NCBI GenBank assembly: GCA_963841435.1
Contig: CAWJCS010000002.1
Location: 416,001 to 480,000 of the forward strand
Origin: an uncultured delta proteobacterium
Lineage (GTDB): Bacteria; Myxococcota_A; Polyangia; Polyangiales; Polyangiaceae
Length of the DNA: 64,000 nt
Direction of reading: 5' to 3'
Shown here one piece after another: positions 2,493 to 20,082 of this stretch (positions are counted from its first letter, which is position 1; every line of letters begins with the position of its first letter). The position numbers and the translations under genes were made by a program. The notes beneath the pieces are model-generated. The model saw only the letters and a list, made by a program, of their open reading frames with translations. It ran no database searches and was not told where the DNA came from.

Positions 2493-5333
2493 TCACGGCG
2501 ACCCGACGCGGTCGAGGTGCCACTGGTAGTGGATCGTGCCGCCGAGGCCGTCCGGTAGGTCGTAGCTGCCCTCGATGGATTGGCCGTCGTCGGAAACGGC
2601 GAGAGGCTCGGCCATCCGCCACCAGTTGATCGTGGTGGGCGAGTACAGGGTCTCGTCCACGCTCAGGTCGTTGCAGTTGCTCACCTCGGTCATCTCGGCG
2701 GCGGTGATACCGGAAGCGACGTACTCCTGCGGATCGACATCGGTGATGACGTTCAGGTTGGCGGAGGTCGTGCCGTAGGCGAGGGGGTCGTACTGTCCGT
2801 CGAGCATGGCCCCGGAAGCGCTCTGCAACGTCCGGCACGCGGGGACGCGACTCGGGAAATCGTAGAGGGCGTCGAAGGTGTAGCTCCCGCTGCCGGATTT
2901 GACCCGGAAGGGCACGGAGCCCTGCTCGGGCGGTGCGAGGGGGTCGAACTCGAACGTCACCTGCGCCGTGGTGCTCGTCGTGAGGGTGCCGAGCCCGGCG
3001 AAAGGCGAATCCTGGTCGCTCGTGACCGTGCCGGTCCAGACGAGCGCGCAGGGCTCGGACTTCGGATGCACGTGCAAGGGTCCCGAGACGCGCTCTCCGG
3101 CCCGCAGCGCATGATTGGCGAGCACCAGCAAGATGCGATCGAAGCTGCCACGTCGCGTAACGGTGGCCGGCCCGTCGTCGAAGCAGAACGTGACCTGGTT
3201 TTCGTCGCTAAAGTCGTAGGGCTGTGCCACCCAGTCGTCCGTCGTGCGGACCAACGCGAGCACGTCGAGCCGATCCGTCGGCGAGAGCTCGGAAAAATCG
3301 AGCTCGACCTGGTGCGTACGCGTGTCCGCCACGTCGAGCTCGACGTAGCGCGCCGTGAGGTTTTCGAAGTCGAGGCTGAGGTCGAAGTCCTGATCCGCGT
3401 TCAGGGTCCCCGACTCCTTGGGTGGACCGTGCTTGTCTGGAAACTGCGCTGGATCCAGATGGACGTAGCGCTCGGTTTCGGGCAGGGGATCACCGGGCAC
3501 GAGCTCGTCGTTCAGATTTCTGAGAGCGAAGCGTCGGAAGTGCTCGTCGAAAGGAAACGCGGCGTCGATGATGTCGTCCGCTTGCTCGAGGGTCGCGTTG
3601 TCGGCGAGCCCGCCCAGGCCATTCCAGATGGAGGCCATGAAGTCCGCGCCTCCGGTCTCTTGTTCGACGAAGTAAGGCCAGATGTAGGCCGCGTAGTCGT
3701 GAGGGTCCGCGAACGCGACGTTGAGCGCAGCGTGGGACGGCAGGATTCGCTGCAGGAAGCGCAGGTGGGCCGAAACGTAGGAGGCCCTCCCGTCCGGCCA
3801 GGGCGCGAGCGTGCGATCGAAATACGCCCCGGCCCAGGTGGCAGAGGCCTCGACGAACCATTGCTTCGCCGCCATGGACGCATTCCCCTGAGACCTCTTG
3901 CCCGCCCACCAGACTCCATGCGCGAGCTGGAGCACGTGAAAGAGCTCGTGGCTGACCGTGAAGTGAAACCGGGACAGGTACAGCTGCGGGCGGGGCAACA
4001 TCACGAACGCGCTCGCCGCGTGTCCGACGTAGGGCAGGTCGTTCTCGGTATTTCCCCGGGCGTCCGGGGCGTAGCCAACGCCCGAACGATGCACGCGGCT
4101 TCCCGGGTCCACGATGTAAAAGTCGATGGCATCGTCCCCACCCCCCAGGTCGAGGAGCGGCGGGCCCATCAGCGCCGTCTCGGGGCCAAAGACCTTGTCC
4201 AGGATCCCAAGCGTCAAATCCAAAAGGCGCACGCTCTCTGCGTCGTGCGCGACGTCGCCCGTGCACTGCGCCCACGCCCGGACCGGCCGCGTTCCGCTGC
4301 GCTTCGAAACCCAGCTCCCGGACTCGGGTGGGCAGGCTTCGGGGGCGGGCAGCACGGCGGCCAGCACCGCCCGCTGCGGCGCATCCGGCCCGAGCACGTC
4401 TGGGAGCGTGACCTCGTTCCACGCGCTCGAGTCGTCCGGCGGTCGCACTCTGTACCGCTCGAGCGCCGCCAGCGCTCCGGGCGAGAGATTCGATCGCTCG
4501 CTCTCGATCTCTTGGGACAGCAGCGAATCCTCCTCCTCCGAGCCCCAGCCGCGGAGCTCACTCGGCAGCCGGTCGTCACCGAAGAGCGCGTACTCGCGGT
4601 AGAGCAGCGACGTTTCGTAGTCGATGGTCCCGGCTTGCTCGGCGTCACGGATCAACGCCTGGGACGTGGGCTCCGTGTTGACGACGGATACGTCGAGCGA
4701 TGCCAGCGCGGTAGCGCCGCCGCCCGTTGCCGTCAGGCCGAGGGCCAGGTCCGTGCCGGCGGCGAGCGCACCATCCAGCATGATCGGAAGCTCGCCCACC
4801 CCAACCGCGCCCGGGAGCACCAGCACGTCGGCGTCGATGCCCTGCGTCGCTCGCGTCGTGATGCTGACGGGATCGGTGAACCCCGCATCGCGCGTGACCG
4901 TCACGCGCAGCACCGCGGTCGCGCCACGCGGCGCCGAGAGCTCAGCGGGCTCGACGGTCACCCTGAACCGCGCCGGCACGTCCCCACTCCCTCCCTCACC
5001 GGCGTCGGCGGCACCGGAGCCGCCCCTGCCGCTCACCGACGACCCGCTACTCCCACCCGCCCCGTCGCCCGCGGCGGACGCCGCTTCGCCACCCTGACCG
5101 CTCTCCGCCCTCGAGCCGCCGGCTCCAGCGGACGACGCGCCGCCCTTCCCGGCCAAACCCGCGCCGCTCGACCCGCCACCTCCCGCGGGACCGTCGTCTC
5201 CGCAGGCGGCAAACATTCCAACGACGACCACGACGACGAGGCCCTGGCCTCTGGCGAAAAGAATCACAGCAGACGGTGCGCGCGAGCGCGGGCGATAGCA
5301 ACACAAAGGGTGAAGCGATCCATTCCGATCCAC
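2493..5333 (-). CDS. Large lipoprotein, putative zinc metallopeptidase (HEXXH)
   Basis: Lipobox-like FAAC, Gly-rich linker, SHELFHVLQ plus downstream WFVEASATW; exact start uncertain. Confidence 0.75.
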   Translation of the reverse strand: MDRNGSLHPLCCYRPRSRAPSAVILFARGQGLVVVVVVGMFAACGDDGPAGGGGSSGAGLAGKGGASSAGAGGSRAESGQGGEAASAAGDGAGGSSGSSVSGRGGSGAADAGEGGSGDVPARFRVTVEPAELSAPRGATAVLRVTVTRDAGFTDPVSITTRATQGIDADVLVLPGAVGVGELPIMLDGALAAGTDLALGLTATGGGATALASLDVSVVNTEPTSQALIRDAEQAGTIDYETSLLYREYALFGDDRLPSELRGWGSEEEDSLLSQEIESERSNLSPGALAALERYRVRPPDDSSAWNEVTLPDVLGPDAPQRAVLAAVLPAPEACPPESGSWVSKRSGTRPVRAWAQCTGDVAHDAESVRLLDLTLGILDKVFGPETALMGPPLLDLGGGDDAIDFYIVDPGSRVHRSGVGYAPDARGNTENDLPYVGHAASAFVMLPRPQLYLSRFHFTVSHELFHVLQLAHGVWWAGKRSQGNASMAAKQWFVEASATWAGAYFDRTLAPWPDGRASYVSAHLRFLQRILPSHAALNVAFADPHDYAAYIWPYFVEQETGGADFMASIWNGLGGLADNATLEQADDIIDAAFPFDEHFRRFALRNLNDELVPGDPLPETERYVHLDPAQFPDKHGPPKESGTLNADQDFDLSLDFENLTARYVELDVADTRTHQVELDFSELSPTDRLDVLALVRTTDDWVAQPYDFSDENQVTFCFDDGPATVTRRGSFDRILLVLANHALRAGERVSGPLHVHPKSEPCALVWTGTVTSDQDSPFAGLGTLTTSTTAQVTFEFDPLAPPEQGSVPFRVKSGSGSYTFDALYDFPSRVPACRTLQSASGAMLDGQYDPLAYGTTSANLNVITDVDPQEYVASGITAAEMTEVSNCNDLSVDETLYSPTTINWWRMAEPLAVSDDGQSIEGSYDLPDGLGGTIHYQWHLDRVGSP

Positions 5334-5469
5334 GTTCCGGCGGGGTATTCAGTCCTCCCGGCGAAAAATGCGGCAAGGTCGCCCCGCGCATCGGTCGAGT
5401 GTGCCAGAGTTTGCGTCGGCCTCGACGCCCAGCGGGGCCACGGCTGAAAAAAAGGAACCCGAGCGCACG

Positions 5470-6534
5470 ATGCCCGATCGAGAACGGCTCGGGGGACCGC
5501 CTCCGAGGGTCGCGGTGCTCGCGCCCATTTCTTGGCGCGTCCCCCCCGTGCACTATGGGCCCTGGGAGCAATTCGTGTCCCTGTTGACGGAGGGTTTGGT
5601 CGAGCGGGGTCTGGACGTGACGCTCTTCGCGACGGAAAACTCGGTCACCCGGGCGCGCCTGGTGGGGAGCGCGCCGTGTGGATACTCCGAGTCGGCGAGC
5701 ATCGACGCGAAGGTGTGGGAGGCGTTGCACATCTCGGCCTGCTTCGAGCGCGCCTCGGAATTCGATATCATCCACAATAGCTTCGACTTTCTGCCTCTCG
5801 CGTTTTCCGGGCTCGTCGAGACCCCGGTCGTGACCACGATCCACGGATTTTCTTCGGAGCGGATACTCCCCGTCTATCAGAAGTACGACGCGACGAATCA
5901 CTACGTCGCGATCAGTGATGCCGACCGGCACCCGTCGCTCCACTATGCCGCGACCATCCACCACGGCATCGACATGGGCGCCTTCGAGCTCGGCCGAGGT
6001 GCGCGAGACCACTTGCTGTTCTTCGGACGCATTCACCCCGACAAGGGAACGGCCGAGGCCATTTCGATCGCACGTCTTTCGGGCCTTCCGCTCGTCATCG
6101 CTGGCATCATTCAGGACCGCGCCTACTTCGCGAAGGCGGTAGAGCCTCACATCGACGGCAAGCAGGTCACGTTTCTGGGTCCGATTGGTCCCGAGCGGAA
6201 GAGCCAGCTGCTCGGCAGCGCGCGGGCCCTCATTCACTACGTCAGCTTCGACGAGCCTTTCGGGTTCAGCGTCGTGGAGGCGATGGCGTGTGGAACACCC
6301 GTGATCGCAACGCGGCGCGGCTCGATGCCGGAGCTGATCCGCGACGGCCTCAACGGCCGCCTGGTCGAGACCCTCGCCCAGGCAGCTGACGCCGTGGCAA
6401 AAATGCGGGACCTGCCGCCTGCAGCCGTGCGTGCCTCCGTCTCCGATCGCTTTCGCGACGATCGCATGGTCGACGACTACCTGGCCTTGTACCGGCGCAT
6501 TCTGGCCGGGCGCGCCGCGCAGGCACGCCCTTGA
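5470..6534 (+). CDS. Glycosyltransferase family 4 (GT-B)
   Basis: VPPVHYG N-terminal motif, FFGRIHPDKG, DEPFGFSVVEAMACGTPVIA. Confidence 0.92.
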   Translation: MPDRERLGGPPPRVAVLAPISWRVPPVHYGPWEQFVSLLTEGLVERGLDVTLFATENSVTRARLVGSAPCGYSESASIDAKVWEALHISACFERASEFDIIHNSFDFLPLAFSGLVETPVVTTIHGFSSERILPVYQKYDATNHYVAISDADRHPSLHYAATIHHGIDMGAFELGRGARDHLLFFGRIHPDKGTAEAISIARLSGLPLVIAGIIQDRAYFAKAVEPHIDGKQVTFLGPIGPERKSQLLGSARALIHYVSFDEPFGFSVVEAMACGTPVIATRRGSMPELIRDGLNGRLVETLAQAADAVAKMRDLPPAAVRASVSDRFRDDRMVDDYLALYRRILAGRAAQARP

Positions 6535-7757
6535 GCGCGCCCGCGGTCACGCCGTTCCGGCTGGGGATCAACTACTGGCCGGCGCGGACGGCGATGGGCT
6601 TTTGGAGCTCGTTCGACGCTCGGGAGGTCGAGACGGACTTCCGACGTATCGCCGAAGGCGGGTTCGACTCGGTCCGCCTCTTTCTGACCTGGGAGGACTT
6701 CCAGCCCAGCCTGGGCGCGCTGGATCCGATCTGCTGCGCGCGCTTGGTCTCGACCCTCGACCTGGCAAGTGCGGTGGGACTCGCCGTCATGCCGACGCTC
6801 TTCACGGGCCACATGAGCGGCGTGAACTTTATCCCAGCCTGGGCTCTGGGGCACCGAAGCGGCGACGACCGCTTCCGCGTCGTCTCGGGAGGTCGCGTCG
6901 TCGCGTCGCGGCTCGCGAGCTGGTATTCCGATGGGGCGATCGGCAAGGCACAGAGCTCGCTCGCCGGCGAGCTCGCCACGGCCCTTTCGGGGCATCCCGC
7001 CCTATGGGCCTGGGATCTCGGCAACGAGAACTCCAACTGCGGCGCGGCGCCCGACAAAGAGAGCGCGCGCGCCTGGCTTCACCGCGTCAGCGAAGCGATC
7101 CGTCGTGCCGACGGGAGCGCGAGGATCACCATGGGCCTTCACATGGAAGACCTGGAACACGATCGGAACCTCGGGCCCGCCGAAGCCGCGGAAGTGTGTG
7201 ATTTTCTGACGATGCACGGCTATCCAGGCTACGCGCCTTGGGCCGATGGCCCTACCGACGAGCGCCTGCTGCCTTTTCTGACTCGGCTCACCGCTCTCTT
7301 GAGTGGTGATGCCGAGGTCCTGTTCTCCGAATTCGGAGTCCCAACGACGGTGAACGGTGAGCTCGAACCGGACGAGCCTCCCTCCGGCCCGGCGCTCGTG
7401 AGCGAGGAGGTCGCCGCGGCTTACGTCGGTCGCGCCCTCCATGCGCTCCATCACTCCGGAAGCACCGGCGCGATGCTCTGGTGCTACAGCGACTACCCCG
7501 CCAATCTCTGGAGCGAGCCGCCCTTCGACGTGGCGATCCACGAGCGCTCCTTCGGTCTGTGGCGCGCGGACGCTTCCCCGAAACCCGCCGTCGCCGTTGT
7601 CCGCTCTTTCGCACAGGAGCGCGCTCTCTTCGCACCGGCCGAGCCGCTGCCCCACTCGAGCTGGTTCGACCGCGACCCGAAGCGATTCTACGCGGCACCG
7701 GAGATCGAGCTGCCACGCCTGTTCGGGCGCTACTGTTCGGCAGCGTCTGCCGGCTAG
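6531..7757 (+). CDS. Clan GH-A glycoside hydrolase (GH5-like)
   Basis: LGINYWP, DSVRLFLTWEDFQP, acid/base WDLGNE, nucleophile SEFG, AMLWC, FGLWRAD; 4-bp overlap with the GT4 stop. Confidence 0.85.
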   Translation: MSAPAVTPFRLGINYWPARTAMGFWSSFDAREVETDFRRIAEGGFDSVRLFLTWEDFQPSLGALDPICCARLVSTLDLASAVGLAVMPTLFTGHMSGVNFIPAWALGHRSGDDRFRVVSGGRVVASRLASWYSDGAIGKAQSSLAGELATALSGHPALWAWDLGNENSNCGAAPDKESARAWLHRVSEAIRRADGSARITMGLHMEDLEHDRNLGPAEAAEVCDFLTMHGYPGYAPWADGPTDERLLPFLTRLTALLSGDAEVLFSEFGVPTTVNGELEPDEPPSGPALVSEEVAAAYVGRALHALHHSGSTGAMLWCYSDYPANLWSEPPFDVAIHERSFGLWRADASPKPAVAVVRSFAQERALFAPAEPLPHSSWFDRDPKRFYAAPEIELPRLFGRYCSAASAG

Positions 7758-7912
7758 GTCGCGTGCCGGCGTCCGTACCTTCTCGTCACGCGCGGCTTCC
7801 GACGACGCCGCGGCGACCATGCTGGTCCCGCTGGTCCTCGGCACCGCGGTGCTGCTGTCGTGGCGCTTGCGCCCGTCGAGCCGGGTGCTGGTGTCGGCAC
7901 CAAGATGGTGGT

Positions 7913-9199
7913 CTAGAGCAACAGCTTCCGCGGGCGGGCGGCCGTTTGGCGTAGAGCGAGCCGTTCGGCGAGCTCGCCGGCAAGGTTGTCGAAGAGGAAC
8001 GCGACCGGGGGCGGCGCGTCCTCGTCGAGCTGGCGCAGCGGCACGCCGTGCTGCGTCGCCTCGAGGAAGGCCGGATGGCGGGGGATGGTCGTGTCGAAAA
8101 GCCACTCGGGCGGCAACTCCTCGAGCGCGCCCTGGAAGACCCCGAGCGAGGCCTGGTGTCGGGTCTGCAGCATGTTGAGCACCACGCCCGCGACCGCGGG
8201 GCGGCGACCCTCGGGCAGCGCGGCGAGCGCTTCCGAAAAGCGCGGGAACGAGCGAGACGCCAGCACCTCGGCCTGCAGTACGCCGACGACGTGCGTCACC
8301 CCGCGTAAGATTGCTCGCGTCGCACCGAACATGCCGGCGGGCGTGTCGACGACCACGACGTCGGCGCGCTGCGCGAGCAGGCCGAGCAGCTCCACCCAGC
8401 GCCGGTGCGGGTCCAAAATCACGAGGTCGAGGTCCGGCAGCACCGGCCCCACCGCCGGCATCAGCTTGAGCCGTGGCAGCACGGTGTCGATCAGCGCCTC
8501 GTCGATGGTCGCGCGGCCGCTCACGATGTCGAGCGCGCCTGCCTTGGCGCGTTCGCGCGCGTCGATGCCGGAGAGCACGTCGCCGTTGACGTCGCCGTTG
8601 ACCAAGATCACCGAGTGCCCGCGCCGGGCGAGGCTCAAGGCGGTGTTGAGCGCGATCGTGCTCTTGCCCGAGCCGCCCTTTGGGCTCACGAACGCGAGGA
8701 TCCTCGCGTCGCGCGCGGGCGCGGCGAGCGACGGGTGGCGGCTCCTTGGGCGTGCGGGCGCGAGAACCGGGGCGGGCGGCGGAGACGATTCGGGGACGGG
8801 CGCGCCCGGAGCCGGCGGCGCCACCCCGGGGTGCGTGGGCAGCTCTTGCAGCGTGAAGGGGCGCGCCTTTTCGGGCCGGACGCTGGAGCGGTCGCCCACG
8901 GCGTCCACCAGGAGCGCGTCGAGGCGGCCGAGCGGCTCCGGAAGCTCCTCCGGCGTCTCCGAGCGAAAGACGAAGAAGTCTCCTTCCTTCGTGCGAAACA
9001 GGTCCTTGAACGCCTCGTGCCCTTGGTGCTCGTCGGCGCTCGCGCTCACGACGTGCCCGCTCTTGACGAAGATGGTGCCGCTCGGGTGCCCGTCGCGCGA
9101 CAGCTCCACGCCCGTGTATTGCCGACCCAGACTCACCACCTGCAGAACCTCGGCGAGGTCGAACTCGCGCAAGCTGCCCTGCATCACTCCGATCTTCAT
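7913..9199 (-). CDS. DUF4388 (PatA-N-like) domain fused to ParA/MinD-family ATPase
   Basis: N-terminal QGSLREFDLAEVLQVV...GTIFVKSGHVV...EGDFFV; Pro-rich linker; deviant Walker A SPKGGSGKST; VVVDTPAG; TTIPRH; ATG 9199 overlaps the globin stop (ATGA). Confidence 0.88.
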   Translation of the reverse strand: MKIGVMQGSLREFDLAEVLQVVSLGRQYTGVELSRDGHPSGTIFVKSGHVVSASADEHQGHEAFKDLFRTKEGDFFVFRSETPEELPEPLGRLDALLVDAVGDRSSVRPEKARPFTLQELPTHPGVAPPAPGAPVPESSPPPAPVLAPARPRSRHPSLAAPARDARILAFVSPKGGSGKSTIALNTALSLARRGHSVILVNGDVNGDVLSGIDARERAKAGALDIVSGRATIDEALIDTVLPRLKLMPAVGPVLPDLDLVILDPHRRWVELLGLLAQRADVVVVDTPAGMFGATRAILRGVTHVVGVLQAEVLASRSFPRFSEALAALPEGRRPAVAGVVLNMLQTRHQASLGVFQGALEELPPEWLFDTTIPRHPAFLEATQHGVPLRQLDEDAPPPVAFLFDNLAGELAERLALRQTAARPRKLLL

Positions 9200-9765
9200 G
9201 ACGGGTTCTCCGTTCCGAGGCGTGCCTCGTCGATGCCCGCCTCCGCGAGCTGCAAAAGCAGCGCTTCCTCGCCCTGTCGCTCTGCCGCGGCGGCGCCGTT
9301 CAGCGCGCCTTGCCGATCGACCCCTGCCGAGCCGAGGCGCATGGTCTGCGCGAGCAGGGTGTAAAGCTGCGTCCACGCGGCCCGAACCTCGGGCGTGAAC
9401 GCTTCGCCGAGTCCGTAATCGAGCGTCCAGAGCAGCGCTTCGGCCACGACGCCGTAAGACGCGGAAGGGATGCGGTAGAGCTCGGAGTGACGACGCCCGA
9501 GGGCGAGCACGACGAGCATCAGATCCTGCTCGGGCGGCACATCGTCGCGCCACTCGTTGTCCGAGAAGTCGAGCGACTTGACGATGAAGGCGAGCATTCG
9601 CAAGAGCTTTCGCTTCTGCGACGCCATGTCCCCCTTGAAGAGCGACTGATAGTCGGGGCGGAGCTCGAATAGGCGCTTGTAGAAGAGATCCGCCGCCGTG
9701 TCCGCAATGGGGACGACCAAGCGGAAACTTTGGCGCACTGCTTTGCGATCGCTTTCGGTCAGCAT
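9196..9765 (-). CDS. Single-domain globin with EF-region insertion and C-terminal extension
   Basis: VRQSF, LFYKRLF (B10 Tyr), SLF, SQKRKL (E7 Gln), LGRRH (proximal His), AFTPEVRAAW. Confidence 0.92.
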   Translation of the reverse strand: MLTESDRKAVRQSFRLVVPIADTAADLFYKRLFELRPDYQSLFKGDMASQKRKLLRMLAFIVKSLDFSDNEWRDDVPPEQDLMLVVLALGRRHSELYRIPSASYGVVAEALLWTLDYGLGEAFTPEVRAAWTQLYTLLAQTMRLGSAGVDRQGALNGAAAAERQGEEALLLQLAEAGIDEARLGTENPS

Positions 9766-9778
9766 TCTTCCTCCGGGC

Positions 9779-10184
9779 TCAGGAGCTCGAGCTCTGCATC
9801 AGCGACGCGATCGCGCCGTAGGCCTCGCTCCACGCGGTTGAAAGCTCGGGCGTCCACGCGTCACCGGCGACGCTCGCCAGCGTTTCGAGCAGGCTCGCTC
9901 CCACCCAGCCGTACATTTCCGGCTTCACGCCATAGTCGCGGTGCTTTTCTCCGAGTGCCCGCAGCTGCTCGGTGAGCCACGGCCCGTCGTCGAGGTGATC
10001 GACGACGGCCACCAACATGTCACGCAGCATTCGCTCTTGCTCGGGGCGCCCGCGAGTCTTGAACAGCGGCTGTGCTTCGGGGTGGTTCTTGAACAAGAAC
10101 GTCGTAGAAACGGTGCGTCACTTCCGGCTCGCGCTCCACGACGAGCGCGAAGCTCGAGCGCAATAGTTCGACGTTGAGTGCCAT
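9779..10184 (-). CDS. Single-domain globin of about 134 aa, interrupted by a +1 frameshift near 10095-10099
   Basis: GGAGG RBS then ATG 10184: MALNVELLRSSFALVVEREPEVTHRFYDVL, continuing in another frame as FKNHPEAQPLF...EQERML...LGEKHRDYGV...WTPELSTAW; span 406 nt = 3n+1. Confidence 0.88.
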
Positions 10185-10359
10185 CGATTACCTCCACCCG
10201 CCGTCTCCGGCGGTCCTGTGGCCGCCTGTCCCTGACGGTCGCAGGCGAGCCTAACCCGAGGGGCACCCGCCGAGCAACGGTGCCACGGGTGCGGGCGTTC
10301 AGGGTAGGTACGCGATGACCCCTCGCTCCGCCGTCAATGGGGCGGATCCGCCAGTCGCG

Positions 10360-10641
10360 TCAAACCGCGTGCTTGCGCATCATCGACGGGGCGGGCGGCG
10401 GTGGCCCCTTCGGCCTGGGCGGCGAGTTCGGCGTAGTCCGCGGTGCGCCTGCTTTGGAGCTCGTCAGCGCGGGCTTTTCGGCCGCGGCTGCCACCGCTTC
10501 TGCTTCGGCCGCCGTGGCGGCCCGAGCCGCAGCTTGAGCAGCAAGCTCGGCACTCCTCGCGGCGTCGTCCTTCGTGGCGCAGCACTTCTTGTACTTCTGA
10601 CCCGAGCCACAATGGCACGGGTCGTTTCTTCCAATCTTCAT
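10360..10641 (-). CDS. SEC-C motif (metal-binding) small protein
   Basis: MKIGRNDPCHCGSGQKYKKCC followed by an Ala/Pro-rich tail. Confidence 0.9.
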   Translation of the reverse strand: MKIGRNDPCHCGSGQKYKKCCATKDDAARSAELAAQAAARAATAAEAEAVAAAAEKPALTSSKAGAPRTTPNSPPRPKGPPPPAPSMMRKHAV

Positions 10642-10988
10642 GACGTCTGCCTTTCTCGCGCGAAGTCCTCGCAGCCGCCGCTCTTGACACCGTCCCGAGC
10701 GGACGTTGAGCAAGCCTGGGATGGTCCGTCGCCCGAGCTGACGCGCGAGGGTCGAGTCGAGCCACGCCGCATCCTTAGCACCGCCCACGAGGCGCGAGGT
10801 CGGCCTGCGCGAAAACGGGCTCCACCTAGGTGCACGAGCTCATCGAGCGGCTGGACGAACGGGGTGGACGCGCGTGCGGTCACGAAAACGGGCACCCCGC
10901 GAGCCGCGGGTTGAGCCGGCACACTGTTCGGCAGCGTCTGCCCGGGCGGCCACGCCCGTCCTTCCCGTCCCGATTGAAATCGCGCCCC

Positions 10989-14300: not shown

Positions 14301-14727
14301 CTGCGCGATCGCCCCGCTCGCTGACGCTCACCTGGTTCGAAAGTTCGACGTTCCCTTCTCAGAGCGGGAACGTGCACGAAAAGCAACGCGTTAACGGCCG
14401 CGACCGCCGACAACGCGAGCGGCTACGCCGTTACGTCACGCGGCGCTAACTCCACCTTGCCTCGGTGCTCTGACAACGCACCCCGCCAGCGGCTTTCCCA
14501 GTTCATTGTGCCTGGGCGCAATGTAAACGTTGCCAACGCCGGGCTTTGGGTGTCCCATCTCTCGAGAGGACGATCCTCCCGTATTTCTGCCCACATTGTG
14601 GGGGGGTGTGCGCGTAGGGCGTGGACTAAACGGTCTTGAGTGCCGCGTGCCCTCACGCGCGGGCATGGTTCCGGAGCTACACGTCACGGTCTCGCGTGAA
14701 CGCGCCTCCCAGAGAAGGTGGCGATGG

Positions 14728-17700
14728 ATGGGCTCCGTAGACTCGACGGCCGCAAACGGTGAACGTGGCACCCCGGAAATGGGCCTTGCGGAGCGTGCGG
14801 CGTTCCTCAACTCCATCCTAGAGAGCTCCACCGAATACTCGATTGTCGCCAAAGATCTCGACGGAACGATCCGTGCGTGGAACGCGGGCGCGCGGAGGCT
14901 GTACGGGTACGACGCGGCTGACGTAGTCGGGAACGCGAACGCCTTCGTCCTTCACTGCCCCGAAGACGTGAAGAGCGGTCGCGCGCAGGCGATTCTCGAC
15001 GAGGCTCGCGTCACCGGCAAGTGGTCCGGGGAGCTCAAACGGATCAGGAAGAATGGTGAGGAATTCACCGCCTTCGTGACGATCACGCTCCGGGTTGACG
15101 CCGCGCGCAAGCCCGTCGGATTCACGATGATCTCTCGGGACCTTACCGAGCCACAGCGACTGCTTCGCGATCTCCGCGAGTCGCAAGAGTACAACCGCGG
15201 GCTCATCGAATCGAACATCGATGCTCTGATGGCGACCGATCCGCTCGGCGTGATCAGCGACGTCAATCTGCAGATGTGCGAGATGACGGGGATTGCGCGA
15301 GAGAAGCTCGTCGGCTCTCCGTTCAAACAATACTTCACGGATCCCAAGCTGGCCGAGGATGGCATCCGCAAGGTGCTGTCCGACGATCGGGTCACCAACT
15401 ACGAGCTCGTGATGCGCTCGCAAGCCGGCACGGAAACCGTGGTCTCGTACAACGCCACCACCTTTCGATCGGCGGACGGAAAGCTGAAAGGTGTCTTCGC
15501 GGCCGCCCGGGACATCACGGACCAGAAACGCCTCGAGAGCGACCTTCGTCAGGCCCAGAACTACACCCGCGGTCTCATCGAAGCCTCCGTCGATGCGCTC
15601 TTGACCGTGGATCCCGAGCTGCGCATCACGGATGTGAACGATCAGACCGCCCGCATGACCGGGTACACCCGAGAAGAGCTGATCGGGAGCCTTTTCCCCG
15701 ACTACTTCACCGATCCCGAGCGAGCCACCGCGGGCGTCAAGAAGACCCTGGCCGAGGCGTTCGTCACCAACTACGTGCTCGGCCTGCGTTCGAAAGAAGG
15801 AAAGGAGACCCTGGTCTCCTTCAACGCCTCCATCTTCAAGGACACCGACGGCATCGTGCGCGGGATTTTCGCGGCGGCGCGCGACATCACCGAACAGAAG
15901 AGGCTCGAAGAGGAGCTGCGGCAAGCGCAGAACTACACGCGTGGCCTCATCGAGGCCTCCATCGATCCGATGATCACCGTTAACGCGGAGCTCACGATCA
16001 CGGACGTCAACGAGCAGATGGTCCGCCTCACCGAGATCGAGAAGAACGAGCTCATCGGGAGCCGATTCGACGCTTACTTCACCGAACCCCAGAAGGCCGT
16101 CGTGGGCGTGCGCGACACGCTTCGCGAGGGGTTCGTCAAGAACTACGAGCTCACGCTCGAAACGCCGAGCGGGCGGCAGGTGCTCGTCTCTTTCAACGCA
16201 TCGATCTTCAAGGACACCCAGGGGAAGGTGAAGGGCATCTTCGCCGTCGCGCGGGATGTCACCGAGCAACGGCGTCTGGAGCAAGAGCTGCGGGAGCAAC
16301 AGAACTACAGCCGAGGGCTCATCGAAGCCTCCGTCGATGCGCTCGTGACGGTCGATCCCCAGGGGCGAATCACCGACGTCAACGAGCAGTTGGCGCGCCT
16401 TACCGGCCACAACAGGAAGAAGCTCGTCGGAAGCCCTTTCGCCGACTACTTCACCGATCCGGGAAAGGCGCGCGAGGGCGTCAAAAAGACGTTCCAGGAC
16501 GGCGTGCTCAAGAACCACGAGCTCGTCGTCCGCGCGAAATCAGGAAGCGTGGCGCCCGTCTCGCTCAACGCGTCCGTGTTCAAGGACACGGCGGGGCGCG
16601 TGGCCGGCATCCTTGCGGCGGCTCGCGATATCTCGGACCAACAGCAGCTGCAGGCGAAGCTCGTCGAACAGCAGGCCTACAACCGTGGGCTCGTCGAATC
16701 GAACATCGATGCTCTCATGACGACCGATCTGCTCGGGACCATCACCGATGTCAACAAGCAGATGTGCGCCGTCACGGGGCGCGAGCGAGACTTCCTCGTG
16801 GGCACGCCGTTCAAGGACTATTTTACGGATTCGAAGCGTGCCGAGGATGGCATCCTCAGGGTTCTCGGAGAGGGTCGTGTCACGAACTACGAGCTCACCC
16901 TCCGCGGAGCAGACGGCAAAGAGACCGTCGTGTCTTACAACGCAACCACGTTTGCCGGGGAGGATGGGAGGCTCAAAGGAGTGTTCGCTGCCGCGCGCGA
17001 CATCACCGATCAGAAGCGGCTCGAAGAGCAATTGCGCCAGGCGCAGAACTACAACCGCGGGCTCATCGAATCCTCCGTTGACGCGATGCTCACGGTCGAT
17101 CCCGACGACACGATCACGGACGTCAACGAGCAGATGGTCAAGCTCTCCGGATACAGCCGAGAGCAGCTCATCGGGACCTCGTTCAAGGACTACTTTTCGG
17201 AACCCGAACGCGCAGCACAGGGTGTGCGCCAGACTCTGAGCGAGGGATCCGTAACCAACTACGAGCTCACGCTTCGGTCCCAACGCCGGCGCCAGATCCT
17301 GGTCTCGTTCAACGCGTCCGTGTTCAAAGACACCGAAGGCGAGGTTCGAGGTATTTTCGCGGTCGCTCGCGACGTCACCGATCAAAAGCGTCTCGAGGAG
17401 AAGCTGCGCGAGTCGGAGAACTACAACCGAGGTCTCATCGAGTCTTCCGTGGACGCCCTCGTGACCGTCAATCCGGATCTGACGGTCACGGACGTCAATG
17501 AACAAATGGTAAAACTCACCGGTTACTCCCGCGAGGAGCTCGTGGGTAGCCCCTTCAAGGACTACTTCACCGAGCCCGCCCGTGCCGCCGCGGGCGTCCG
17601 GCAGACCTTCGACGATGGATCGGTGACCGACTACGAGCTCGTTCTGAAATCGCGCGCTGGAAAGCAAACGGTGGTCTCGTTCTACGCGGGCACGTTCAAG

Positions 17701-20082
17701 GATGCGAGCGGCCGGGTTGCAGGCATCCTCGCCGCGGCTCGCGACATCACGGCGCAGAAACGCCTGGAAGATCAGCTTCGGGATCAACAGAACTACAACC
17801 GCAGTCTGATCGAGTCGCGCGTTGACGCGCTGATGACGGTTGACCCTCACGGCATCATCACGGACGTGAACGAGCAGACCATCAAGCTCAGCGGCCACAA
17901 CCGCAAGCAGCTCGTCGGGAGCCCGTTCGTGGACTATTTCACCGACGCCGAGCGGGCCCTTTCCGGTGTACGAAAGACGTTCGACGATGGCGTCGTCACC
18001 AACTACGAGCTCGTCGTCCACGCGAAGTCGGGCAAGGAGCTGCCTGTTTCGTTCAACGCTGCGGTGTTCCGAGATGCCGGCGGCGCCGTCGCCGGTATCC
18101 TTGCAGCGGCGCGCGACATCACGCAGCAGAAAGAAATCGAGCACGCGCTCCGGGAGCAGCAGACGTACACGCGCGGCCTCATCGAGTCGAACATCGACGC
18201 GCTGATGACGACGGATACCCTCGGCATCATCACCGACGTCAACAAGCAGATGTGTGCCGTCACGGGACGAACACAGGACGAGCTGATCGGGACGCCGTTC
18301 AAAGGCTATTTCACTGACACGAAGCTCGCAGAGGATGGTATCCGGAAGGTGCTCAGCGAGGATCGCGTCACGAACTACGAGCTGACGATCCAAGGCAAGG
18401 ACGGCAAGCAATCCTTCGTCTCGTACAACGCGACGACCTTCAAGGGAGCGGACGGCAGGCTCAGGGGCGTTTTCGCCGCGGCGCGCGACATCACCGATCA
18501 GAAGCAACTCGAGGAGCAGCTGCGGCGCAAGAACGAAGAGCTCGAGGAGCAGAATCGGCGGGTTCAGAAGGCGAATCGTCTGAAGAGCGAGTTTCTCGCG
18601 AACATGTCGCACGAGCTACGGACACCGCTCAACGGCATCATTGGCTTCGCGGAGCTGATGCACGACGAAAAGGTGGGGCCCGTGTCCGCCGACCACAAGG
18701 AGTACCTCGGCGACATTCTCACGAGCTCGCGCCACCTGCTTCAGCTGATCAACGACGTCCTCGATCTCGCGAAGGTCGAGTCGGGGAAGTTGGAGTTTCG
18801 GCCGGAGCGTGTCGATCTCCGAAAGCTCGTCGGCGAAGTGCGCGACATCGTGCGGACGCTCACGGCCCAAAAGCGGATTCAACTGACCTGCGAGGTCGAT
18901 TCGACACTAGAAGCCGTCATGATCGATCCGGGGAAGCTGAAGCAAGTGCTCTACAACTATCTCTCGAACGCGTTGAAGTTCACGCCCGACGCGGGAACGG
19001 TCGTCGTTCGGGTGCGGCCGGAAGGCGATGCTCGCTTTCGTCTCGAAGTGCAGGACACCGGTATCGGCATTCGCGAGGAGGACTTCAAACGCCTCTTCGT
19101 CGAATTCCAGCAACTCGATGCGAGCGCCGCCAAGAAACACCAAGGGACGGGCCTCGGGCTCGCTCTGACCCGCCGAATCGTCGAGGCGCAGGGTGGCGAA
19201 ATTGGCGTCACCAGCACTCCGGGAAAGGGCAGCACATTCTACGCCATTTTGCCCCGTACCTGTCCGGCCGCAGAACGCCAGCCGAGCGCCGACGAAGTGG
19301 CGGACGCCGCCCCGCGCAAGCCCGGGCAGCAGTCCGTTCTCGTCGTCGAGGACGACGCAAAGGAACGCGCGTGGATCGTCGGCACGTTGACGGCCGCAGG
19401 CTACGCCGTGGAAGCGGCGGCGACGGGCGAGGCTGCGATCCGCGCTGGGCAGGAGCGCTCGTTCGACGCGGTCACCCTCGATTTGCTGCTTCCGGACATG
19501 AGCGGCTGGGACGTGTTGCGAGCGATGCGGGCCGGGCCTCGAAACCGCGACGTCGCGGCGATTGTGCTCACCGTCGTCGCGGAGAAGGGGGCTGGGGTCG
19601 GCTTCATCGTTCGAGACTTCTTGGTCAAGCCGGTTCGAGCCGATGCTCTGCTCCATGCGCTGAAATGCATCCGCGCGGGACCCTCTGGGGAGCGCTCGGT
19701 GCTCATCATCGACGACGATCCGAACGCGGCGAAGCTGGTAGAGCCGGCGCTCCACGAGCACGAATTCCACGTGACGGCGGTCCGCGATGGGGCGAGCGGC
19801 CTGAAGGCCGCAAGGGCCCGCCCTCCATCGGCGGTGGTTCTGGACCTGCTGATGCCCGGTATGGATGGGTTCGAATTCTTGCGTCAGTTTCGGCTCACGG
19901 ATGCCGGATGCAACACGCCCGTCATCGTCTGGACCGTGAAGGAGCTGACGAATGCGGAGCGTGTTCGGCTTCAGGCTTCGGCCCAGGCCATCATCACGAA
20001 GGGGGCGGGCTCCACCGACGTGCTCCTCGCGGCGCTCGAGCTCCACCTCGCGCAGACGATGCGGGGTTCCTATGGCGGGTGA
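14728..20082 (+). CDS. Soluble hybrid histidine kinase: 10 PAS, HisKA, HATPase, 2 REC
   Basis: Ten PAS/PAC units ending in RDIT/RDVT-like motifs; H-box FLANMSHELRTPLN; NALKFT, DTGIGI, GTGLGL; two receivers (DLLLP, DLLMP); start 14728 or 14779. Confidence 0.97.
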   Translation: MGSVDSTAANGERGTPEMGLAERAAFLNSILESSTEYSIVAKDLDGTIRAWNAGARRLYGYDAADVVGNANAFVLHCPEDVKSGRAQAILDEARVTGKWSGELKRIRKNGEEFTAFVTITLRVDAARKPVGFTMISRDLTEPQRLLRDLRESQEYNRGLIESNIDALMATDPLGVISDVNLQMCEMTGIAREKLVGSPFKQYFTDPKLAEDGIRKVLSDDRVTNYELVMRSQAGTETVVSYNATTFRSADGKLKGVFAAARDITDQKRLESDLRQAQNYTRGLIEASVDALLTVDPELRITDVNDQTARMTGYTREELIGSLFPDYFTDPERATAGVKKTLAEAFVTNYVLGLRSKEGKETLVSFNASIFKDTDGIVRGIFAAARDITEQKRLEEELRQAQNYTRGLIEASIDPMITVNAELTITDVNEQMVRLTEIEKNELIGSRFDAYFTEPQKAVVGVRDTLREGFVKNYELTLETPSGRQVLVSFNASIFKDTQGKVKGIFAVARDVTEQRRLEQELREQQNYSRGLIEASVDALVTVDPQGRITDVNEQLARLTGHNRKKLVGSPFADYFTDPGKAREGVKKTFQDGVLKNHELVVRAKSGSVAPVSLNASVFKDTAGRVAGILAAARDISDQQQLQAKLVEQQAYNRGLVESNIDALMTTDLLGTITDVNKQMCAVTGRERDFLVGTPFKDYFTDSKRAEDGILRVLGEGRVTNYELTLRGADGKETVVSYNATTFAGEDGRLKGVFAAARDITDQKRLEEQLRQAQNYNRGLIESSVDAMLTVDPDDTITDVNEQMVKLSGYSREQLIGTSFKDYFSEPERAAQGVRQTLSEGSVTNYELTLRSQRRRQILVSFNASVFKDTEGEVRGIFAVARDVTDQKRLEEKLRESENYNRGLIESSVDALVTVNPDLTVTDVNEQMVKLTGYSREELVGSPFKDYFTEPARAAAGVRQTFDDGSVTDYELVLKSRAGKQTVVSFYAGTFKDASGRVAGILAAARDITAQKRLEDQLRDQQNYNRSLIESRVDALMTVDPHGIITDVNEQTIKLSGHNRKQLVGSPFVDYFTDAERALSGVRKTFDDGVVTNYELVVHAKSGKELPVSFNAAVFRDAGGAVAGILAAARDITQQKEIEHALREQQTYTRGLIESNIDALMTTDTLGIITDVNKQMCAVTGRTQDELIGTPFKGYFTDTKLAEDGIRKVLSEDRVTNYELTIQGKDGKQSFVSYNATTFKGADGRLRGVFAAARDITDQKQLEEQLRRKNEELEEQNRRVQKANRLKSEFLANMSHELRTPLNGIIGFAELMHDEKVGPVSADHKEYLGDILTSSRHLLQLINDVLDLAKVESGKLEFRPERVDLRKLVGEVRDIVRTLTAQKRIQLTCEVDSTLEAVMIDPGKLKQVLYNYLSNALKFTPDAGTVVVRVRPEGDARFRLEVQDTGIGIREEDFKRLFVEFQQLDASAAKKHQGTGLGLALTRRIVEAQGGEIGVTSTPGKGSTFYAILPRTCPAAERQPSADEVADAAPRKPGQQSVLVVEDDAKERAWIVGTLTAAGYAVEAAATGEAAIRAGQERSFDAVTLDLLLPDMSGWDVLRAMRAGPRNRDVAAIVLTVVAEKGAGVGFIVRDFLVKPVRADALLHALKCIRAGPSGERSVLIIDDDPNAAKLVEPALHEHEFHVTAVRDGASGLKAARARPPSAVVLDLLMPGMDGFEFLRQFRLTDAGCNTPVIVWTVKELTNAERVRLQASAQAIITKGAGSTDVLLAALELHLAQTMRGSYGG
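15190..18537 (+). repeat. Nine diverged 372-bp (124-aa) tandem PAS repeats
   Basis: TAC codon of Y(N/T/S)R(G/S)L at 15190, 15562, 15934, 16306, 16678, 17050, 17422, 17794 and 18166, each exactly 372 bp apart. Confidence 0.95.

Follow-up and report, generated by a model that had tools for sequence, protein, structure and literature searches.

We analysed a 64,000-nucleotide stretch of the genome of an uncultured delta proteobacterium (hereafter, the window), in which a compact three-gene module occupies positions 7913–10184 on the minus strand. In the direction of transcription, the module consists of globin 1 (9779–10184), a 13-bp spacer between the globin 1 stop codon and the globin 2 start codon (9766–9778) that contains a GGAGG ribosome-binding motif, globin 2 (9196–9765, 189 aa) and a gene encoding a 428-aa ATPase (7913–9199). 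The stop codon of globin 2 (TGA) and the start codon of the ATPase gene (ATG) overlap in the tetranucleotide ATGA (9196–9199), which we read as translational coupling. The ATPase begins with a PATAN (DUF4388/PatA_N) domain (residues 1–105; 8885–9199), followed by a Pro/Ala-rich linker of variable length (residues 106–165; 8705–8884) and a ParA/MinD-type ATPase domain (residues 166–428 and the stop codon; 7913–8704). The gene order, the 13-bp gap and the ATGA overlap thus agree with the initial annotation, as does the lack of a ParB gene in the window; ParB_N has a single match in the genome, on contig C6. Pfam searches and clustering of the flanking ORFs revealed no reductase domain in or beside the module. 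A SEC-C gene lies upstream of the module in the window, and GT4 glycosyltransferase and GH5-like genes lie downstream. Scans of positions 7600–10900 for promoter and terminator consensus sequences returned 0 sites each, and such scans are uninformative in a myxobacterial host with 68% G+C.

Globin 1 had been taken for an intact gene, which was not borne out by the reading frames. Its longest open frame under translation table 11 (9779–10096) encodes 105 aa, without helices A and B and without the B10 Tyr, and the first 29 codons (starting from the ATG at 10184) lie in a different frame. The two parts are separated by one apparent extra base at positions 10094–10097, where four bases between Val29 and Phe31 replace a single Leu codon of the orthologues. 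Reading through this site gives a 134-aa single-domain globin of the VHb/flavohaemoglobin-N-terminal type that departs from the orthologue alignment (A3) at none of its 41 invariant columns, and all 20 orthologues in that alignment are unbroken open frames. Intact orthologues share 50–82% identity with globin 1, and the globin model PF00042 (cut-off 22) scored 61.8 bits with the read-through and 59.1 bits with the 105-aa ORF. The insertion may be a true mutation or an assembly error; public reads from three runs gave a single 268-nt contig over the locus (9212–9479), and the site lies outside its span.

We next compared both globins with solved structures and family models. Tyr B10, Gln E7 and the proximal His F8 were found in both proteins by alignment to solved globins, as the initial annotation had stated, and do not vary among the orthologues compared (29 of globin 2, 20 of globin 1). 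The statement that neither globin carries a reductase or transmitter domain also holds, and Pfam detected no domain other than globin in either protein. Among solved structures, globin 1 comes closest to HGbRL (1.8e-17), followed by yeast FHb (1.4e-15) and VHb (3.4e-15), and its E10 position is Met in the alignment to solved globins. Globin 2 (PF00042, 39.1 bits; cut-off 22) is closest to HGbI (3.1e-17) and HGbRL (3.3e-16) among solved structures and has two additions: helices E and F are separated by an insertion of ~11 residues, and a tail of ~45 residues extends the C-terminus. Its invariant residues in 29 sequences include Y29, Q50, K53, H93, W72, V76, D81, L82 and L84. The HGbI/HGbRL-like subgroup is characterized by Tyr B10, Gln E7 and an E10/E11 residue able to ligate or shield the haem, and Lys E10 is a haem ligand in the closed form of HGbRL, according to the accessible text of Teh et al. 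2015 (PMC4476040). The corresponding residues of globin 2, Y29, Q50, K53 (equivalent to the E10 Lys of HGbI) and L54, are invariant in 29/29 sequences. Judged from its sequence, globin 2 is therefore a stand-alone predicted haem globin of this subgroup. Neither protein belongs to the flavohaemoglobins (Hmp), as NF009805 (cut-off 432) scored 37 bits with globin 2 and 85.5 bits with globin 1, along only the first 133 model positions. Nor are they globin-coupled sensors, which carry a covalent transmitter, since the 134-aa and 189-aa proteins consist of the globin domain only. The protoglobin model PF11563 (cut-off 25) scored 20.4 bits with globin 1 and gave no match with globin 2. Among 69 longer relatives of globin 2, globin domains were fused to chemoreceptor, cyclase, EAL, CheW or channel domains, with no fusion to a flavohaemoglobin reductase (0/69).

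The N-terminal domain of the ATPase matched PF14332 at residues 7–101 (44.9 bits; cut-off 25), its nearest Atlas clusters were PatA_N (score 0.94), and its model had a pLDDT of 91.8. Foldseek found no relative of this fold in the PDB at E ≤ 0.001 (best 0.085), and VIA-align found none with Z ≥ 5 among 48,161 chains (best Z 4.8, YopQ, rmsd 3.7 Å over 80 residues); the absence of a match is no proof of a new fold. The protein differs from PatA-type response regulators, as it has no Response_reg match and a ParA/MinD domain follows PATAN. That domain matched CbiA at residues 168–387 (45 bits; cut-off 25.4) and AAA_31 (43.8 bits; cut-off 27), and the ParA and MipZ models likewise scored above their Pfam cut-offs. 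It carries a deviant Walker A motif (KGGSGKST), a Walker B motif and a C-terminal tail in which basic residues precede LLL. K174, G175, G176, G178, K179, D203 and D285 are invariant in all 29 sequences of the ATPase alignment (A1), so that every sequence has the two lysines of Walker A and the aspartates of Walker A′ and Walker B, which places the protein in the ParA/MinD superfamily. Its closest solved relatives are CapB, MinD and ParA/Soj. All named subfamilies scored below their cut-offs, namely MinD (52.6 bits; cut-off 212.9), ParA_partition (50.4; 180), BcsQ (42.2; 157.85) and eps_fam (67.6; 108.05), and the C-terminal Tyr cluster of BY-kinases is absent. The linker could not be aligned in A1 and ranges from about 40 to 160 residues. 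The conserved C-terminal tail is the sole sequence hint of a possible ATP-dependent dimer that binds a surface (DNA or membrane) and responds to a stimulating partner. Two other roles were considered and rejected. As a defence system, the module gave only a 43-residue P-loop match for the ATPase in PADLOC (E 6e-5) and none for the globins. A polysaccharide or BcsQ role was suggested by database names and by the GT4 and GH5-like neighbours, but these neighbours are unconserved and BcsQ scored far below its cut-off.

The initial annotation had asked whether homologues of the ATPase are linked to globins in other genomes, and they are. Globin 2 lies immediately upstream of the ATPase gene in 14/15 related genome loci and in 35/38 eligible metagenome loci (those that include the ATPase N-terminus and no less than 600 bp of upstream DNA); these two counts are not independent, because the loci partly overlap (in the tree, L055 = L031 and L063 = L027). 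Where a metagenome locus holds both genes, the 4-bp overlap of stop and start codons recurs in 27 of 37 cases, and most genome loci have it too. Moreover, globin 2 orthologues (E ≤ 1e-60) and the full-length ATPase occur in an identical set of 10 among 41 related genomes. The module is patchy and was found in 9/24 other sampled genomes of the same genus. Clustering of the flanking ORFs from 75 loci showed that the neighbouring genes vary between loci. The recurrence of this gene order across dozens of loci is far above chance. A fourth conserved gene was sought and rejected: the next commonest neighbour clusters were generic histidine kinases of differing architectures (14/75) and Ser/Thr kinases (8/75), and the SEC-C, glycosyltransferase and GH5-like neighbours in the window are unconserved. 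ORFs between globin 1 and globin 2 in one locus (L102) and upstream of another (L072) had no Pfam match. No globin–PATAN or globin–ParA fusion occurred among the 69 longer globin 2 relatives or among the 120 ATPase relatives listed.

Globin 1 is facultative, being present in 8/15 genome loci and 15/28 metagenome loci, and its spacer to globin 2 is 13–49 bp in 15 of the 17 metagenome loci having both globins. It is probably an accessory VHb-type globin that belonged to the ancestral module and was lost repeatedly. Of the proposal that two globins and an ATPase form one module, the tight and conserved coupling of globin and ATPase stood, but the core contains globin 2 only. A heterodimer of the two globins was also considered, since cyanobacterial di-globins make up the longer relatives of globin 1; these lend it no support, as both of their halves are globin-1-like (51% and 48% identity to globin 1, compared with 32–37% to globin 2).

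We then predicted the complex of globin 2 with the ATPase, as the initial annotation had recommended. The three runs gave ipSAE values of 0.82, 0.79 and 0.74 (median 0.79), whereas the best of three controls gave 0.00. The mark used is reached by 116/157 solved complexes and 2/215 mismatched pairs, a calibration that is only roughly valid here because the inputs were shallow custom alignments (29 rows each) with a haem riding along; the score itself expresses model confidence. The runs share at least 55% of their contacts, and the partner pLDDT is at least 75. The score is unlikely to stem from the memory of the model, because no solved structure resembles PATAN. The predicted interface comprises residues 67–87 and 137–150 of globin 2 and residues 4–8, 13, 17–27, 46–49 and 79–94 of PATAN, and it runs through the globin-2-specific insertion adjoining the proximal His. 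Its invariant residues are W72, V76, D81, L82 and L84 in globin 2 and G8, F13, V18, R26, Q27, Y28, K46, G48, R79 and P89 in the ATPase. The interface segment of globin 2 is the part of the monomer predicted with the lowest confidence (block 71–80, mean pLDDT 52).

The pattern of gene loss was compared with this interface. None of the 29 sequences of A1 departs from R26, Q27 and Y28, and a neighbouring globin was seen for 27 of them. In two relatives without the globin (L072 and L114), Ser-Pro-Glu or Ser-Ser-Glu replaces Gly/Ser-Arg-Gln, and a third (L077) shows the same motif change, with upstream DNA too short to judge the globin. Two homologues without PATAN (L093 and L099) also lack the globin. 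In one paralogue (L024) the motif is retained with no globin next to it, and the genome of this paralogue has globin 2 at another locus. These losses represent few independent events, because the sequences in which globin and motif are both gone belong to just one or two clades. The modelling results support direct docking of globin 2 on the PATAN domain. The earlier view of PATAN as a generic interaction module needs correction: the domain looks more like an input (receptor) domain, because it is PATAN that globin 2 is predicted to contact.

On balance, we consider it somewhat probable that the module is a two-protein switch of haem sensor and ATPase, in which the globin is coupled non-covalently and a third part is optional. 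We infer the signal, the direction from sensor to ATPase, the control of the ATPase by haem and the output in positioning or polarity. Globin 2 would be made in step with the ATPase through the overlapping stop and start codons and would dock on the N-terminal PATAN domain via the insertion just before the proximal-His helix. When a gas (O2, NO or CO) binds or leaves, or the haem changes its redox state, this helix and the insertion may shift, and PATAN and then the flexible linker could relay the shift to the ParA/MinD domain. The relayed change would alter ATP-dependent dimerization, surface binding or turnover of the ATPase and, with it, the placement or activity of a putative target.

A different possibility, already named in the initial annotation as a system that localises globins, is that the globin is cargo, such that the ATPase holds globin 2, with or without globin 1, via PATAN as an adaptor and spreads or anchors it, for example on the nucleoid or, close to respiratory oxidases, at the membrane. 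The linkage and the predicted binding fit this equally well, and the module has no other conserved neighbour that could serve as cargo. We nevertheless regard it as unlikely: the known cargos of ParA/MinD ATPases, as described in the accessible text of PMC10241942, are large assemblies and not small soluble proteins, and the sequences contain no pointer to an oxidase partner. Moreover, the closest multi-domain relatives of globin 2 are signalling proteins, and the interface adjoins the proximal-His helix, a position suited to signal transfer.

MinD/Mrp-like NTPases, P-loop proteins of the same broad class, serve as metal-centre chaperones. The ATPase might accordingly be a maturation or maintenance factor that loads or reduces the haem of globin 2, which would be compatible with production of the two proteins in strict step, their co-occurrence and their predicted binding. 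This appears very unlikely, as the ATPase has no conserved Cys or His pair, the Walker A Cys of many orthologues being Ser in the window, and no match to a reductase or haem-binding domain (Pfam, NCBIfam), and as globin 1 and the third globin of the genome have no such partner. Mere co-transcription, with globins that detoxify NO or buffer O2 and an ATPase whose job is unrelated, is the least probable reading and hardly credible: globin 1 does resemble the globin domain of the NO-inducible flavohaemoglobin (NF009805, 85.5 bits; cut-off 432) and Tyr B10 and Gln E7 also line the pocket of NO dioxygenases, but adjacency, the 4-bp overlap and identical phyletic patterns persist while all flanks change, the globin is lost jointly with the PATAN motif or the whole PATAN domain, binding is predicted against controls of 0.00, and the module has no reductase domain within or beside it.

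The sensor–ATPase switch favoured here can be compared with several known systems. HGbRL of Methylacidiphilum infernorum, a globin fused to a Roadblock/LC7 domain (PDB 3wfw), ranks first or close to first among the solved relatives of either globin. It has the pocket residues Tyr B10 and Gln E7, with Lys E10 shared by globin 2, and joins a haem globin to a domain thought to regulate an NTPase; Teh et al. 2015 (PMC4476040) give its function as not known. However, HGbRL is a covalent fusion, whereas globin 2 stands alone and is only predicted to dock; its partner is Roadblock instead of PATAN and a ParA/MinD ATPase, and the E–F insertion and C-terminal tail of globin 2 are absent from both HGbRL and HGbI. 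Globin-coupled sensors (HemAT, kinases, cyclases) likewise combine a haem globin input with a signalling output, and the closest longer relatives of globin 2 are such fusions, but their transmitter is fused, while the module globins have none and match PF00042. In a literature search, no haem sensor with a ParA/MinD ATPase as its output came to light. The pairs ParA–ParB, MinD–MinE, PomZ–PomX/Y, ParC/PpfA and McdA–McdB resemble the module in having a deviant Walker A ATPase and a small partner encoded adjacently. The module ATPase differs from these in scoring below all named-subfamily cut-offs and in its added N-terminal PATAN domain, and its partner, predicted to bind PATAN, is a haem protein and no short basic peptide directed at the ATPase domain. 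In the cyanobacterial PATAN-REC regulators, such as PixG and PixE, PATAN is the protein-binding part and contacts PilB1 and PilC, as stated in the accessible text of bioRxiv 10.1101/2021.06.11.447907. The PatA-type regulators thus share PATAN (PF14332) with the module, but the module ATPase has no receiver domain, and its PATAN, fused to an ATPase, is predicted to receive input, whereas PATAN in those regulators delivers output.

ParA/MinD ATPases organize chromosomes, division sites, flagella, chemoreceptor arrays and carboxysomes, and to our knowledge, the routes by which environmental signals reach them are poorly known. Many bacterial globins stand alone without an output domain, and for most of these no partner has been assigned. 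In agreement with the initial annotation, we found no published account of a system of this composition in a literature search that included a 2024 ParA/MinD review, which named no haem or gas input to these ATPases. These results suggest that the globin–PATAN–ParA module of soil myxobacteria is an undescribed route by which oxygen-type gases would control a ParA-type ATPase. If globin 2 indeed docks on PATAN, this would be the first gas-sensing input to the ParA/MinD family and would assign a binding partner to PATAN outside the pilus motor. It would also provide a small pair testable in vitro, with soluble proteins, named interface residues and haem spectra as a read-out. A broader and rather doubtful idea is that PATAN might be a general receptor for stand-alone haem globins that feeds O2, NO or redox signals into NTPase switches setting polarity, motility or the placement of cell parts; these switches would be ParA/MinD ATPases in the present module and, together with Roadblock partners, MglA-type GTPases in cyanobacteria and other Myxococcota.

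We confirmed that the three genes are arranged on the minus strand as claimed in the initial annotation, which had described a tight operon. Globin 1 (ATG at 10184) is followed, after a 13-bp spacer containing GGAGG, by globin 2 (9765 to 9196, 189 aa), and an ATGA overlap at 9196–9199, in which the TGA of globin 2 lies inside the ATG of the next gene, leads into the PATAN-ParA ATPase (9199 to 7913, 428 aa). In Pfam searches, residues 7–101 of the ATPase matched DUF4388/PatA_N (PF14332, here PATAN) above the cut-off, and residues 166–387 matched CbiA, AAA_31, ParA and MipZ, with every model above the cut-off. The globin family model PF00042 was the sole Pfam match in either globin, in agreement with the claim that neither carries a reductase or transmitter domain. 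However, globin 1 had been read across a frameshift: after codon 29, four bases (10094–10097) are found in place of one expected Leu codon, and table 11 therefore gives no more than a 105-aa ORF beginning at 10096, without helices A and B. One four-base step in translation yields a normal globin 1 of 134 aa. Because 20 of 20 aligned orthologues have uninterrupted open frames and all 41 invariant columns of their alignment are kept in the window's read-through, this frameshift is either a very recent change or an assembly error; the one public contig placed over the module spans 9212–9479 only, and so lies outside 10094–10097.

Homologues of the ATPase were linked to globins elsewhere as well, as a neighbourhood check of the gene order established. 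Globin 2 was directly upstream of the ATPase in 14 of 15 genome loci with the N-terminus and upstream DNA, the sole exception (L024) being an additional paralogue of the ATPase in genome G016, where the other copy is accompanied by a globin 2. A metagenome scan with the ATPase alignment kept 80 loci, 45 with the N-terminus and 38 with 600 bp or more of upstream DNA; globin 2 was present in 35 of these 38, a set that is not independent of the genome loci, since some metagenome contigs are near-copies of them (L055 = L031, L063 = L027). The metagenome exceptions were L072 and L111/L114, the latter two sharing one contig and appearing broken. Among the 35 metagenome loci without an N-terminal match, globins were found at L109 only, and there was no globin at 20 weak ParA-only matches (L115–L134, 28–35% identity). 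Where metagenome loci carried both genes, 27 of 37 kept the 4-bp stop/start overlap, as did most genome loci.

We found the full-length ATPase in 10 of 41 related genomes, and globin 2 orthologues (E ≤ 1e-60) in the same 10, always adjoining the ATPase. Beyond the genus, a 401-genome draw of the phylum gave a full-length ATPase in two further genera, one within the family (genome G225) and one in a different family of the class (G280), counts that are a floor because the first look in this search was stricter; in both genomes globin 1, globin 2 and the ATPase were present in unchanged order. A word-based protein search returned 289 ATPase relatives (E ≤ 1e-10). Of these, the 120 listed were 47–81% identical, matched PF14332 in all but a few short proteins, and bore only generic source names (AAA family ATPase, chromosome partitioning protein, BcsQ); the DNA showed that contig ends truncate the short relatives at L064 and L065. 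In the window's own genome (7.78 Mb, 6 contigs), there were 16 matches to PF14332, and only the one in the module's ATPase lies within 2 kb of a PF00042 match.

The two-globin composition held for globin 2 (35/38 and 14/15 loci), but not for globin 1 as a fixed part, which was present in 15 of 28 metagenome loci with at least 1100 bp upstream and in 8 of the 15 genome loci. A quick maximum-likelihood tree built from 46 ATPases, with a midpoint root and long-branch warnings, showed 7 or more changes in the presence of globin 1, against 2 for globin 2. Gain and loss are indistinguishable from the tree alone, although repeated loss is the simpler account because the copies are orthologous (50–82% identity) and the deepest split has globin 1 on either side. 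The window's frameshift would be consistent with an additional loss. In a deep clade (L102, L103 and L109), globin 1 and globin 2 lie ~1.25–1.3 kb apart, and the ORFs in the gap, including L102:1109-2427, had no Pfam match.

Among solved structures, both globins were closest to HGbRL and HGbI of Methylacidiphilum, followed by neuroglobin, flavohaemoglobin globin domains and Vitreoscilla haemoglobin. Alignment to solved globins placed Tyr at B10, Gln at E7 and the proximal His at F8 in both proteins, as originally noted, and these residues were invariant among 29 globin 2 and 20 globin 1 sequences. The Lys at E10 of globin 2 was also invariant; in the account of HGbRL in PMC4476040, Lys E10 is the haem-binding residue of the closed form. 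Compared with HGbI, globin 2 has an insertion of ~11 residues between helices E and F, which holds the invariant W72, V76, D81, L82 and L84, and an extra ~45-residue tail whose conservation extends to most lineages, though not to the deepest. Longer relatives of globin 2 (69 proteins, 40–52% identical) were globin domain fusions to chemoreceptor, adenylate/guanylate cyclase, EAL, CheW and mechanosensitive-channel domains, with no flavohaemoglobin reductase, PATAN or ParA among them. Longer relatives of globin 1 were cyanobacterial proteins with two globin-1-like domains, including tandem di-globins of 327–378 aa (P0192–P0199), each half of which is ~50% identical to globin 1. The window's genome has a third PF00042 globin (contig C3, L135:3066-3515, minus strand, 137 aa, 63.3 bits), which is HGbI-like, has no E–F insertion and adjoins a Tll0287-like protein and a multihaem c-type cytochrome (3542-5545).

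We modelled the full ATPase with globin 2 and haem, using a 29-row alignment for each protein. The ATPase-globin 2 ipSAE values were 0.82, 0.79 and 0.74 (median 0.79), compared with 0.00 for the best of 3 controls; in the calibration set, 116 of 157 solved complexes and 2 of 215 mismatched pairs attained the ipSAE mark, and these counts hold only roughly here because of our own alignments and the riding ligand. At least 55% of contacts agreed between runs, and partner pLDDT was at least 75. The model supports, though it does not show, the proposed binding of a globin to the DUF4388-ParA protein in the case of globin 2. Predicted contacts involved PATAN residues 4-8, 13, 17-27, 46-49 and 79-94 and globin 2 residues 1-3, 67-87 and 137-150, that is, its specific insertion just before the His93-bearing F helix and the end of helix H, and many of the predicted interface residues were invariant in both partners. 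When globin 2 was modelled as a monomer, confidence was lowest in the insertion (block 71–80, mean pLDDT 52), which would fit a segment ordered on binding. PATAN alone was predicted at pLDDT 91.8 and had no clear relative among solved structures; the result is therefore unlikely to be memory of a known complex. At the centre of the predicted interface, PATAN positions 26–28 were Arg-Gln-Tyr (once Arg-Gln-His) in all 12 globin-linked domains compared. Pro-Glu or Ser-Glu replaces Arg-Gln in the globin-less L072 and L114 and in their sister L077, whose upstream DNA is too short to judge, and PATAN-less homologues (L093 and L099, 55–61% identical in the ATPase domain) had no globin upstream. These natural variants are consistent with the binding model, but are not proof, since they represent few events from one or two clades.

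The module is real and conserved, and apparently undescribed so far. Our full-text search, whose coverage mostly excludes subscription journals, found no paper joining DUF4388 with globin, none combining three of globin, ParA-like, myxobacteria, single-domain globin and PATAN, and only six irrelevant papers for globin, MinD, ParA and ATPase together, while a 2024 ParA/MinD review contained none of globin, heme and PATAN. The initial annotation, which knew of no system of this composition, was confirmed in its observations apart from the frameshift, and partly supported in its interpretation. By motif and Pfam the ATPase is a member of the ParA/MinD superfamily, in no named subfamily. The module would work like globin-coupled sensors, but without their defining fused transmitter; HGbRL, a globin fused to a different domain (Roadblock/LC7), is the nearest precedent in idea and sequence.

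We consider it reasonably probable that the module is a non-covalent globin-coupled ATPase, a reading based on conservation and one well-controlled model. The haem of globin 2 would sense gas or redox state, movement of the F helix and E–F insertion would elicit a response in PATAN, and this could be passed through a flexible Pro-rich linker (40–160 residues) to the ParA/MinD domain, whose ATP-dependent dimerisation, surface binding or turnover would change. It appears unlikely that the globin is cargo of the ATPase, and a role of the ATPase as a maturation factor for globin 2 is much less likely still. Mere co-transcription of the genes is the least credible account. Every catalytic residue of the ParA/MinD domain was kept in 29 of 29 sequences, and the conserved C-terminal tail, basic and then LLL, may hint at the target of the ATPase, to which it is the only further pointer. 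Elsewhere, PATAN domains are described as binding the pilus motor (bioRxiv 10.1101/2021.06.11.447907), and PATAN genes as lying near the MglA/MglB polarity genes (PMC4316618); an output in motility or polarity would therefore be plausible.

The genes flanking the module are not conserved. The most frequent clusters over 75 loci were the ATPase (68), globins (41), histidine kinases (14), which differ in architecture, and Ser/Thr kinases (8). A kinase of the last cluster was nearby in 8 of the 75 loci, and at L033:1466-2905, L056:458-1903, L059:430-1866 and L076:507-2087 a Ser/Thr kinase gene directly precedes the globins in the same orientation. The paralogue at L024:6052-7401 (G016 contig C23), which is 55% identical, keeps Arg-Gln-Tyr and has no adjacent globin, is followed downstream by a Ser/Thr kinase with WD40 repeats. 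In the window, a small SEC-C zinc-motif protein (10360-10641, minus strand) is encoded on the strand of globin 1, 175 bp upstream of it, and clustering of flank ORFs did not recover it as a conserved neighbour at other loci. An ORF of 946 aa (2493-5333, minus strand) has a Gly/Ser/Ala-rich N-terminus, an HExxH-like motif and no Pfam match, and a hybrid histidine kinase of 1850 aa (14530-20082, plus strand) contains about ten PAS domains, HisKA, HATPase_c and two receiver domains.
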